IMG/VR virus record: IMGVR_UViG_2713896831_000009
DNA length: 15,071 nt
Direction: 5' to 3' (one strand)
Source: a virus
Taxonomy: Duplodnaviria; Heunggongvirae; Uroviricota; Caudoviricetes
Shown: in pieces, positions 610-3,600 of the stretch
Layout of the letters: each line of letters begins with the position of its first letter
Position numbering within the stretch: the stretch's first letter is position 1
Made by a program: the position numbers

Positions 610-3600
610 TCAATGGAATCATCAGGCAGGGACTGAATAAAATGCAGGCAATCAGCGTTGATTAAATCAACACTGTTTATTTTTACAGTATTTTTCATGG
701 ATCAGTAAGCGTAACTCTGGTAGGCTCACTCTGCTTTTGCGCTAAAGCAGTGGGCCGTGGTTCGCTTGTGACCAGTAAGCATGAGCGAATGGCTGGCAGG
801 TGCTACCAACACCCACCAGCCGCCCATTTCACAGCAGGAAACCGCCATTACTGGCAGCGTCTGAATTTATTCCCGTACCCGCCGTTATCCTTCGCCAGAC
901 CCGCCAGAACTAACTGAGTCAGTATTAACTGGCACCGGGCTTCGCTTACTCCGGTAGTTCTCGTCATCATGCGTGGCGTTACCCACTTGTCAGCAGGTAA
1001 GAAATGAAGGACTGCTGCGGCGGTTTCTGTCATATCTTGCTGTTTTAGGATGTCTTTTTCCCTTCTGGTTAACATGACATACCAATAACTCTTGTCTAAA
1101 AAGCCAGCAAGATAAAAAGCCAGTATTCACGACCACCAGCGTGTTTACTGTACTGCACCAGGTTTACAGGTACAAAAAAACCGCTCAGCGGCGGGTTTAA
1201 GTTGTGTGGCGAAGTAACCACTCTTAACAGCATATTTGATTTTTTACGATTGTAAACGGTTGATTATTCATCTCCAATAAAAATAATTGTGTGGGTATGC
1301 CCTTAACAATGGATAAGAAACATGAATAAAATGACTGTATTATTACTTAGCGCAACTATCATTTCAGGTTGTACTTCTTCCGTACCATTGATAAAGAAAA
1401 CTCAATCAGGAAAACCTGAGGGGGTTTATCAAAATACGACAAAAGATAAAGTCAAAGATGCCCTTGTGAATTACTGCAATAGTAGAGGGTTGATAATTTA
1501 CAACGCGGATAACAGCAGTGTTATATGTGGTAAAGAACTGGAAGGCGGGTCTGCTGTTTTTGGACAAATGTTAATCGGCAATGCCTATTCAACAACCCCG
1601 GTATCAAAAGTCAAATTTACTATCGCTCAAGTTAATAACGATACAAAAGTGTGGGCCGATATGTGGATGGAAACTCAAATGGCAATGGGGCAAGTACAAC
1701 AAATGGCTATAACAGACAACGCAAGCAAAAACACTATCCAACAACGTCTTGATGAATTAAAACCTTAAGTAAATTAATTAAATAAAATGGGGAGAATAAA
1801 TCGACTCCCCACACATTAAACTGATTCAATTACCCCCTCAATAAGAGGTCTTCTAACGATCCATCTCTAGCTCAATTTCTAACATCATTAACATGCCATC
1901 AACTACACCTTCAGCCTTTTGCAATAAACGCCCAACCCAGCAATCAGAACGCCCATGTTTACGGGCAAGCGCCATAAACGTCATACCACCTACATAATAA
2001 TCCACTAATAAATCGTGCAAATCGCTGTTGTTCTTTTTCAGGCGAGCCATGCATCCACAAATGATCATCGCGTCATCGTCACAACATTGCGGGCGGGATT
2101 TTACTTTTGAAGGGATTAGTCCTTTAAATCCTGCAGCAATAGACGACCAAGTGACATCCTCGTGATTATTTGCCACCCATGCCCCCCAACGTTCAAGAAC
2201 CATTTGAATATCACGCATCAACTTTCTCCACAAAATCAGGCCAGCACGCCAATTGCCAGCGCACGATCGATAAAACGAAATATCAGCTCCAGCTGGGAGC
2301 CATACTTCTCTTCAAATGCCACGGTATCCGCATGCAGCTCGTCGTGATGCTTTCTGCACAAAGGCAACACAAAAAGGTCATGCGCTTTTGTTCCCATTCC
2401 ACCCTGACCGTGACCTATCAGGTGGTGGGGATCATCAGCGGGCTTTCCACAACATGCACACGGCTGTGTCTTAACCCAGCGCGTGTACGCGGGGCAATTT
2501 CAGGGGTCAGTAGTGCTCTCACGGTCACCTCAATGAACGGTATCGAGCAGCTTTAACAGCTCAGGGAATCGGGATTCGAAGAAATGCGGCTGCGTCTCGC
2601 GCGGATTTGCGGGACTGGTGATGTTCTTGCCGAACATGCAGCCTTTCGCTGTCAGCGACCAGAATTTTTTGATGTTGTTAATCGCGGTATGGCTGTATCG
2701 TTCGCGCTGCTCGACGATCCCCAGCTTCACCATCTGGTGATATGCCTGATTAGCCGTCAGGCGGATACCATACTGTTTCAGCAGTGCACTCAGTGACAGT
2801 GTCGGGCGACTTGAGCCATCGTGTGCATCAGCAGGAGCATCAATGGCATAGCGCGGTGCCAGATTCGGTAAGCCAACAGCCTCCTGGAGTTTCTGACAGG
2901 CACCAAGCACTGATGAGTTAGACAGGTTTAATTCCCGGCGCATAAAGTCCAGCAGGATCACGCCAGCCTGCATCTTGTCAGCAGCCTGTCCGGATAATTT
3001 TTCCGGTGCGCTGGTTACCATATCGAAAGTACGGATCACCTTCAGATGGAATGACGGGCTGATCCACATTGCATAGGCATACACCAGTTCCTTGCAGACA
3101 TACGTTCCCCGTTCATTTCCCCCATGAATCACACTCACCGGGTCAACACCCAAATTCTGGGTGTTGGTCAATTCATGAACAAGCTCAACAGTTTGTTGGC
3201 TGGAAAGAAACTTTCCTGGCTCCTTGGTTCTGGCATTTGCACCAGATGCTACTGCTGCGCGATGCAGATCGTTCAGGCTGTAACGCCCATAAGCATCACG
3301 ACGAACTTCAATACCATCAATGACCATCAGATTATTCATACTTCGTTTCTCCTCTTGATCAGGCGGCTGCACCCGCCGTTTTCTCGTACTTACTGATGGT
3401 GATCTCGACCTTCCCTTTCGGGATAACCGGTCCCCACTCCACCAGCATTCTTTTCACCTGTCTGTCGTCTTCCCACACACCCGCGTGGGTCAACGCGTCA
3501 AACAGCGCCTTGTTATAGTTGTCCAGATCGCGGATCCGGTTATCCGGAGGAAACAACACGATCTCCACTGCAGCAGGTGCCGACGTTGGTTTTGGCAGAC

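Follow-up and report, generated by a model that had tools for sequence, protein, structure and literature searches.

Within 15,071 nucleotides of a tailed-phage genome (Caudoviricetes; IMG/VR virus record IMGVR_UViG_2713896831_000009), the whole of which we call the window, an AT-rich stretch holds a gene for a small exported lipoprotein, and the comparisons laid out below mark this open reading frame (ORF) as a functional gene, accessory to lambdoid prophages and horizontally mobile. It is prophage envelope cargo, which is a known kind of gene; the large family to which it belongs, PHROG 3152, is uncharacterized and experimentally tractable. What might such a protein do for the phage, or for the cell, that carries it? 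Our preferred answer, a tentative one to which we would give something short of an even chance, is that it would work at the level of the envelope, as an exclusion or protection factor directed at a conserved step or target. The parts of the gene are these:

1311..1313, plus strand: Shine-Dalgarno-like GGA within an ATGGA motif, read from the sequence
1322..1768, plus strand: lipoprotein gene, an ORF of 148 amino acids (aa), recognized by its PHROG 3152 match, AlphaFold2 (AF2) model and purifying selection
1322-1369, plus strand: signal peptide, residues 1-16, upstream of the lipidation residue Cys17
1370-1372, plus strand: codon of the predicted lipidated Cys17, invariant among 17 aligned homologs

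The preliminary description of the window had placed here a 148-aa lipoprotein gene of distinct composition and had asked for a prediction of its signal peptide and lipobox; on each of these points it held up. The product begins MNKMTVLLLSATIISGCTSS, that is, with a short charged stretch, an 11-residue hydrophobic core and then the lipobox, and the signal peptide MNKMTVLLLSATIISG runs directly into the cysteine of an I-S-G-C box that agrees with the pattern [LVI][ASTVI][GAS]C. Cys17, Cys52 and Cys69 are all invariant across the 17-homolog alignment, and the mature lipoprotein has 132 aa, a mass of 14.5 kDa and a computed isoelectric point of 8.45. The guanine-plus-cytosine (GC) fraction over 1200-1800 is 0.34-0.38 against about 0.47-0.55 in both flanks, and in three other prophages the gene stands at 0.39-0.44 against flanks of 0.51-0.56. 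Upstream of the Salmonella and Jejubacter copies of the gene, the ATGGA motif recurs.

This is a real gene under strong purifying selection. Its product matches the PHROG 3152 profile over the full length (residues 1-148 on profile positions 1-148; expectation value, E, 6.3e-104), and an identical gene in relatives stands in RefSeq as WP_001038605.1, annotated as a hypothetical protein; a literature search found nothing on that entry (as WP_001038605) or on PhiR40_1, a related phage that will serve us repeatedly as a reference. Full-length copies are present in 185 of 5426 complete Escherichia coli genomes (3.4%), UTI89 included, at 91-100% identity and in a fixed arrangement. Between the window and its Salmonella homolog, the proportions of changed nonsynonymous and synonymous sites (pN and pS) are 0.19 and 0.78, the synonymous sites being saturated, and between the Salmonella and Jejubacter copies the ratio of nonsynonymous to synonymous rates (dN/dS) is 0.07.

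The family beyond these genomes is large and uncurated, with no model in Pfam, NCBIfam or PADLOC. A word-indexed search returned 29 relatives, all of them Enterobacterales; a full search of 1.84 billion representatives with a hidden Markov model (HMM) returned 821 clusters at E<=1e-3, 402 of them at E<=1e-10. Some members are longer, the added part being a C-terminal PDZ domain (SHOCT present or not), a TPR/YfiO-like domain or an extension of unknown nature, and many of them have a type-I signal peptide in place of the lipobox; the annotation “PDZ domain-containing protein” is found on members from Xanthomonas, Stenotrophomonas, Sphingosinicella, Tsuneonella and Erythrobacter. For the longer forms, the surroundings are island- or plasmid-like in Stenotrophomonas, Xanthomonas and Erythrobacter, with neighbors such as umuDC, SRAP and H-NS, RadC and Imm11, or ParB and a strawberry-notch helicase. 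One E. coli paralog of 45% identity (L013 212-7422) sits on a plasmid-like contig of about 44 kb between a ToxN gene and a microcin J25-like cluster—a lasso-peptide cluster with Transglut_core3, an Asn_synthase-like protein and an ABC exporter—and a conjugative plasmid of Kosakonia carries another copy.

In the E. coli clade, alignment puts the gene in a hypervariable cargo slot downstream of the antiterminator gene Q, pointing against the methylase and lysis genes. The landmarks around it are as follows:

1853..2233, minus strand: antiterminator Q gene, Q82/QuuD type, 126 aa (PF06530, E 2e-51)
1230..1852, no strand: variable cargo segment, from the Q stop codon to the conserved block, defined by alignment and by alternative cargos
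1040..1229, minus strand: conserved block, common to phages with different cargos and Q alleles, defined by four-way alignment
848..1075, minus strand: small conserved ORF of 67-75 aa, PHROG 331, of unknown function, which follows the cargo slot in all relatives

When the window is aligned with three other phages, the four are near-identical up to window position 1229 and unrelated from 1230, and homology to QuuD-type Q genes (the DNA of this one is 82-83% identical to quuD of DLP12, and its start is placed at 2218 in RefSeq relatives) ends at the Q stop. With so sharp a border on one side and the end of homology on the other, the segment 1230-1852 is exchangeable, and other prophages have indeed filled it differently:

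phiP27 (an Stx2e phage), L003 4065-5294, co-directional with Q: gene L22 of 409 aa, between Q and the methylase, with a T5orf172/MUG113 domain and a PD-Lambda-1 match (PADLOC E 2e-89)
E. coli MARGA_3: a WYL-domain gene
E. coli 2014C-4423, opposite strand: two unknown genes
E. coli JNU (DLP12-like prophage), L019 1190-2287, convergent with Q: a porin gene
REL606, L020 1784-2308, convergent with Q: a lipocalin-family lipoprotein gene

The lipoprotein gene on the plus strand is convergent with Q (1853..2233, minus strand, PF06530) and runs opposite to the late genes, just as the preliminary description had it. The same description called the gene a moron, and the term, taken in the sense of Juhala and Hendrix for an independent accessory unit of a phage genome, fits in three respects: the gene is present or absent at one junction among related phages, with five other cargos in the slot; its composition differs from that of its flanks; and it is oriented against the late direction. 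The other two marks of a moron are a promoter and a terminator of its own; this copy has a plausible candidate for the first and, past its stop, a hairpin tailed on the opposite strand, and we return to both below.

One earlier claim did not survive. The gene had been said to stand in the place of the lysis cassette; intact relatives retain the full cassette downstream, and the window is without it through a deletion of about 20.6 kb. PhiR40_1 (99.2% identical to the window over 1200-1850) and the intact prophages of E. coli fECg99.1 and UTI89 have one common gene order, reading along the late strand Q, the inverted lipoprotein gene, the 67-aa ORF, a 1053-bp DNA methyltransferase, holin, lysozyme, Rz and terminase. 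This order is shared, at fixed spacing, by 50 of 50 E. coli-clade loci in IMG/VR. At the E. coli-clade locus L050 7445-9341, we also noted about 1.8 kb extra, probably an insertion sequence, between the lipoprotein gene and Q. What the window has instead of the cassette is a scar made of two pieces:

530..698, minus strand: 5' end of the DNA methyltransferase gene, of which the deletion has left 169 nucleotides (nt)
1..533, minus strand: internal fragment of the tail host-specificity gene J, about codons 592-770, recognized by translation

Homology to the three intact relatives stops at position 530; the stretch 530-760 supplies the first 169 nt of the methylase gene, and the J fragment (1-533), 89.5% identical to J of PhiR40_1, meets the methylase remnant in a methylase'::J' junction at 530-533 with a 4-bp overlap. 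Measured in PhiR40_1 coordinates, the junction marks the removal of about 20.6 kb holding the lysis, packaging, head and most tail genes, and it is absent from every complete E. coli genome in our collection. A second deletion, of 700 bp at about 2486-2488 relative to PhiR40_1 and fECg99.1, took most of the DUF968 (ydfU-like) gene next to Q and left a 53-aa C-terminal ORF at 2236..2397. The window is a decaying prophage, its lysis and morphogenesis genes later lost by deletion and its lipoprotein gene kept intact, 100% identical to the copies in intact prophages; the impression of a replaced cassette arose from the larger deletion.

How the gene is transcribed in its slot is a question with a few candidate elements for an answer:

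1260..1287, plus strand: candidate sigma-70 promoter TTGATT-16-AATAAT, from a consensus scan (9/12)
1788..1812, minus strand: hairpin GGGGAG-N10-CUCCCC with a U-rich tail, terminator-like for transcription leaving Q

The gene had been credited with a promoter of its own, and TTGATT-16-AATAAT is a plausible candidate for it; its 9/12 match is not significant alone, since matches of this type number eight in the region against 3.6 +/- 2.1 expected from shuffling, which is not clearly above chance. The hairpin had likewise been named the Q terminator. It is there, just past the stop, beginning 19 nt beyond the lipoprotein stop and ending 40 nt beyond the Q stop, with 7-8 bp, a folding free energy of -11.2 kcal/mol (z -2.3) and a U-rich tail on the Q strand only, whereas on the lipoprotein strand ACACAUUAAAC comes after it; it is no more than a candidate for that terminator, tR', since it lies within the exchangeable segment and is not common to the other phages whose Q genes are related. 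Canonical co-directional terminators do follow the lipoprotein gene in its Salmonella and Jejubacter copies.

A search for the late promoter pR', made by comparing the sequences after Q in six phages, found no common element directly after Q. The conserved block at 1040-1229 holds a hairpin that resembles a terminator (1180-1194, then a T7 run); at the border of the block (1229-1234) is a -10-like TAnnnT element, kept in all four aligned phages and paired in the window with TTTACA at 1251-1256. The block could be the late promoter and leader, or else it could serve as promoter region for the methylase gene and the 67-aa ORF. If it is the former, the lipoprotein gene would lie in an insulated pocket between Q and the late start, and late transcription would not run antisense through it. 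An Rfam scan of 700-2300 found no known RNA.

The Q slot is the exception within the phage copies. At 23 of 25 divergent IMG/VR loci (40-70% identity), the gene lies inside a lambda-like tail-tip module and co-directional with the tail genes, at the junction of the tape measure gene H with M, of M with L, or of K with I. The placement is the same in the Salmonella, Jejubacter, Citrobacter and Photorhabdus prophages that we inspected singly and in 10 of 10 gammaproteobacterial matches among species-representative genomes, a scan run with a narrow family alignment, whose matches include Morganella, Proteus, Enterobacter, Symbiopectobacterium, Xenorhabdus and two Haemophilus species (43% identity). 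Elsewhere, the gene is found in an early region in Phytobacter, between recA-like and RusA genes, and in a P1-like element in Enterobacter. The H-M and K-I junctions also carry multi-gene cargo islands in several genera (Arc repressors, a P22-type antirepressor, KilA-N, Bro-N, helix-turn-helix proteins and DUF2545, at loci L005 1700-5900, L023 5500-9600, L080, L082, L087, L092 and L113), which makes them general insertion hot spots.

If the lipoprotein worked on a particular tail protein, or on the receptor that the tail protein recognizes, the two might be expected to vary together. We compared it with the J C-terminus, the J N-terminus, the tape measure, M, L, K and I, and no specific partner signal emerged. 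In four pairs of loci (L100/L101, L099/L100, L085/L088 and L091/L094), lipoproteins that are 98-100% identical accompany J proteins whose C-terminal 200-residue ends are 29-33% identical and whose N-termini are 89-99% identical, and the overall correlation between lipoprotein and J C-terminal identity is slight (Spearman 0.16, p 0.07). For L099/L100, where the lipoproteins are 99% identical, the tape-measure C-termini are 30% and the M proteins 45% identical, and only the adjacent K and I are similar. At its C-terminus, J of PhiR40_1 resembles neither the Salmonella nor the Jejubacter J, although the lipoproteins are 72-77% identical. In these comparisons, the lipoprotein travels with its immediate neighbors only, which speaks for a conserved host target, or one common to the entry process at large, and weakens the idea that it masks the receptor of its own phage in the manner of Cor and Llp.

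Where would the protein act? The product is predicted to be exported, lipidated at Cys17 and sorted by the Lol system to the inner leaflet of the outer membrane, given that there is no Asp at position +2. The +2 residue is Thr here, which under the rule for E. coli directs a lipoprotein to the outer membrane; across the family it is Ala in 138 sequences, Thr in 22, Val in 18, Ser in 9 and Asp in none, and 204 of 275 family sequences have the lipobox, while others carry a type-I signal peptide. The AlphaFold2 model, built from a 17-sequence alignment (predicted local distance difference test, pLDDT, 86; predicted template-modeling score, pTM, 0.77), runs strand, helix, two strands, helix, three strands, helix. 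The chain becomes ordered at about residue 21-23, with pLDDT reaching 90 from residues 21-30, only some 4-6 residues past the anchor, and a domain of 14.5 kDa on so short a tether would be held against the periplasmic face of the outer membrane; its target should then be there too. A disulfide between Cys52 and Cys69 is probable and fits a periplasmic location. The residues conserved across the wide family (T27, S29, G30, G86, N87, Y89, S90, M120, G123, Q124 and N137) are polar and lie in loops, a patch that is likely to be a binding surface rather than a catalytic site.

The fold itself, predicted to be a generic domain of the helix-grip/KA1/BamC-like sort, says little more. Foldseek against the PDB gave the BamC N-domain as best match (E 5e-3), the BFVD viral structure search gave no significant match, and a sequence profile search of the PDB gave none below E 0.9. 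Neither Pfam, NCBIfam nor PADLOC offers a family match, and the sole match listed in PADLOC-DB 2.0 is PbeC at E 0.013 and 12 bits, short of what would make this a catalogued defense protein. The preliminary description had found the protein unlike Cor, Llp and Bor, and Pfam and PHROG concur (no match at E<=0.1); it had also named homology to the spanin Rz1 or another lysis protein as the finding that would overturn it, and we searched and saw none beyond the signal peptide. Apart from PHROG 3152, the PHROG matches are to “Rz-like spanin” only, at E 0.018-0.035 and over residues 1-45, which is to say the signal peptide. An outer spanin is a proline-rich lipoprotein of about 40-60 aa when mature, encoded in or beside an inner-spanin gene of the lysis cassette. 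We have set it aside on these grounds, the mature protein here being globular and 132 aa long and a separate Rz lying about 3 kb away in intact relatives. The name “VirB7” in one UniProt entry reflects the lipoprotein signal only.

We can now say what we think the protein may do. Its partner would be a conserved component in the outer membrane or close to it, either a host envelope protein or something belonging to a generic step of siphovirus tail-tip penetration, and by binding this partner it would make entry harder for other phages; the receptor of the phage that carries it would be left unmasked. What counts for this exclusion reading is the gene's lasting association with the tail modules of siphoviruses and with other mobile elements, together with the presence of a validated defense gene family (PD-Lambda-1) in the same E. 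coli slot in phiP27. The reading also draws on analogy with HK97 gp15, with Ltp and with the lipoproteins of mEpimmI phages, all described at the close. Several things weigh against it. There is no homology to a known exclusion or defense protein in Pfam, PHROG, NCBIfam or PADLOC-DB 2.0. The tail junctions also hold unrelated cargo (Arc, antirepressor, KilA-N and Bro), and placement there may reflect insertion hot spots. Since the lipoprotein co-varies neither with the end of J that binds the receptor nor with the tape measure, there is no co-evolutionary signature of a phage target, and the forms fused to PDZ or TPR in Xanthomonadales and Alphaproteobacteria hint at a role in the periplasm of a more general sort. 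Finally, the candidate promoter is unproven, and the neighboring hairpin is not oriented as a terminator of this gene.

A bolder form of the exclusion proposal, which we regard as doubtful and worth stating all the same, would make the protein the founding member of a large unrecognized family of exported domains on mobile elements, docking at the periplasmic face of the outer membrane and blocking siphovirus entry, or some other invasion, independently of receptors. A docking domain of this kind would explain how the gene persists in tail modules from Enterobacterales to Haemophilus while receptor-binding and tape-measure alleles assort freely around it, and it would explain why island and plasmid relatives are fused to PDZ and TPR partner-binding modules.

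What else could the protein be? It might do nothing to phages at all and serve the fitness of the lysogen, in a role like that of Bor, by helping the cell to survive serum, antimicrobial peptides or envelope stress. We think this rather unlikely. The gene is intact in a prophage short of about 20.6 kb of essential genes, it is carried by uropathogenic UTI89 and by many clinical and animal isolates, its counterparts in the same slot of other prophages are envelope proteins (porin and lipocalin), and it is oriented opposite to the late genes, as lambda bor is; against these points, there is no Bor/Iss homology (PF06291 was unmatched), and placement in tail modules across many genera, insect and nematode symbionts included, is not what one expects of serum resistance.

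The mask of the Cor/Llp type, which would bind the periplasmic side of its own phage's receptor, block superinfection and spare progeny from being caught on debris, is improbable. The protein is predicted to be at the outer membrane, the genes usually adjoin tail-tip or receptor-binding genes (as do llp, cor and the lipoprotein genes of mEpimmI phages), and the E. coli paralog is near a microcin J25-like cluster, microcin J25 being a peptide whose uptake needs an outer-membrane receptor. These attractions are hard to square with the loci where lipoproteins of 98-100% identity are paired with J C-termini of 29-33% identity, or with the J C-terminus of PhiR40_1, which is unlike that of Salmonella and Jejubacter despite lipoproteins 72-77% identical; nor is there any sequence relation to Cor or Llp, the mature protein being about twice their size.

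We would rate just as low the chance that the protein is a periplasmic inhibitor or immunity protein whose polar loops neutralize a peptidoglycan hydrolase, a colicin, a microcin or an effector of the type VI secretion system. Family members are exported, as lipoproteins or in soluble form, with a conserved polar patch and a probable disulfide, and they are sporadic on phages, plasmids and islands, like orphan immunity genes; one paralog is beside the microcin J25-like cluster and ToxN, and one Xanthomonas locus has Imm11. No cognate toxin gene, however, is consistently adjacent, Pfam shows no similarity to Ivy, MliC/PliC, PliG or known immunity families, and the location in tail modules is left unexplained.

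Less probable again is a helper of the late lytic cycle, changing the envelope late in infection in a way that affects lysis timing, release or premature triggering of tails, with no part in lysogenic conversion. Most phages have the gene inside their late tail operon and running the same way, often without an obvious promoter of its own, and the E. coli copy adjoins the lysis region. Yet the E. coli-clade gene is inverted relative to the late genes, and late transcription of it would be antisense; the Salmonella and Jejubacter copies have their own terminators; intact relatives already possess holin, endolysin and Rz; most related phages lack the gene, which is hence not essential; and the spanin matches are restricted to the signal peptide. 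As for a chance ORF or decaying pseudogene in an AT-rich spacer, an idea that the defective prophage and the missing functional annotation might invite, conservation refutes it (full-length copies in 185 genomes, 821 family clusters at E<=1e-3, dN/dS of 0.07 and a confident structure model), and we give it practically no weight.

Two other regions of the window caught our attention. On the minus strand, a C4 antisense RNA (6544-6631; 80.7 bits) and an isrK Hfq-binding RNA (6656-6732; 56.7 bits) match Rfam models at gathering level, inside or next to an Ash-family gene at 6256..7092; the whole of 6544-6732 looks like an antisense control module of the P1/P7 style in the early region. Over about 12600-13650, the window is strongly AT-rich a second time (GC 0.29-0.34), and an ORF of 239 aa with no Pfam match lies there at 12842-13561 on the minus strand; it adjoins the integrase gene at 13848..15071 and may be cargo too. 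In its place, the intact relative fECg99.1 carries a hypothetical gene of 1242 bp.

Why should one more prophage lipoprotein matter? Envelope lipoproteins of prophages are a recurring route to phage resistance and virulence, and few of their families (Cor, Llp, Bor and Ltp) have been studied. This family is common—in 3.4% of complete E. coli genomes and in many other genera—and strongly conserved, and it has no curated model. If the exclusion reading is true, receptor-independent exclusion would bear on host-range failures in phage therapy, and a gene family that defense-prediction tools currently miss would be added to their lists. If the function turns out to be different, the family remains a candidate for a new periplasmic binding domain.

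It remains to set the lipoprotein beside the systems that it most resembles. Cor from phi80, N15, HK022 and mEp167 and Llp from T5 are phage lipoproteins that inactivate FhuA. The likeness is that all are accessory phage lipoproteins predicted at the outer membrane, with genes usually by tail-tip or receptor-binding genes; the differences are that there is no sequence relation, that our protein has a mature length of 132 aa and a helix-grip-like domain, and that its variation does not follow that of J at the receptor-binding end. Bor/Iss of lambda is an outer-membrane lipoprotein of serum resistance, encoded near the lysis region and oriented against late transcription. Our gene has that much in common with it—a prophage outer-membrane lipoprotein gene near the lysis region, against late transcription—and differs in having no PF06291 match, another size and fold, and a place downstream of Q rather than, as in lambda, downstream of Rz. 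The nmpC/lc porin of DLP12 and PA-2 and the REL606 lipocalin lipoprotein share its slot, its convergent orientation to a QuuD-type Q and its envelope destination, and they belong to unrelated protein families. To the helix-grip domains of BamC, KA1 domains and DUF3568 (Francisella Flpp3), it gives fold-level matches only, at 6-11% identity, with Foldseek E > 1e-3 and no common motifs, a resemblance too generic for any transfer of function.

Closer in spirit is gp15 of HK97, the first moron to be described. Encoded in the tail operon, it blocks genome injection without touching the receptor (PMC3594210). Like our gene, it is accessory among the conserved tail-operon genes of a lambda-like siphovirus, and it acts independently of the receptor, as we propose here; unlike our protein, it is a small YebO-like protein of the inner membrane rather than a lipoprotein, and its specificity maps to the tail region, whereas our lipoprotein shows no co-variation with the tape measure. 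Ltp, the exclusion lipoprotein of the Streptococcus thermophilus phage TP-J34, has a fold of all-helical repeats. Its target, according to the work cited in PMC3952083, is the tape measure protein. On that cited account, it too is a prophage lipoprotein at work outside the cytoplasmic membrane, where it acts on a step of entry and not on a receptor, with the differences that its host is Gram-positive, its sequence unrelated and its gene located in the lysogeny module. And in the mEpimmI phages, lipoproteins encoded in the structural cluster do exclude superinfecting phages (PMC11893012).

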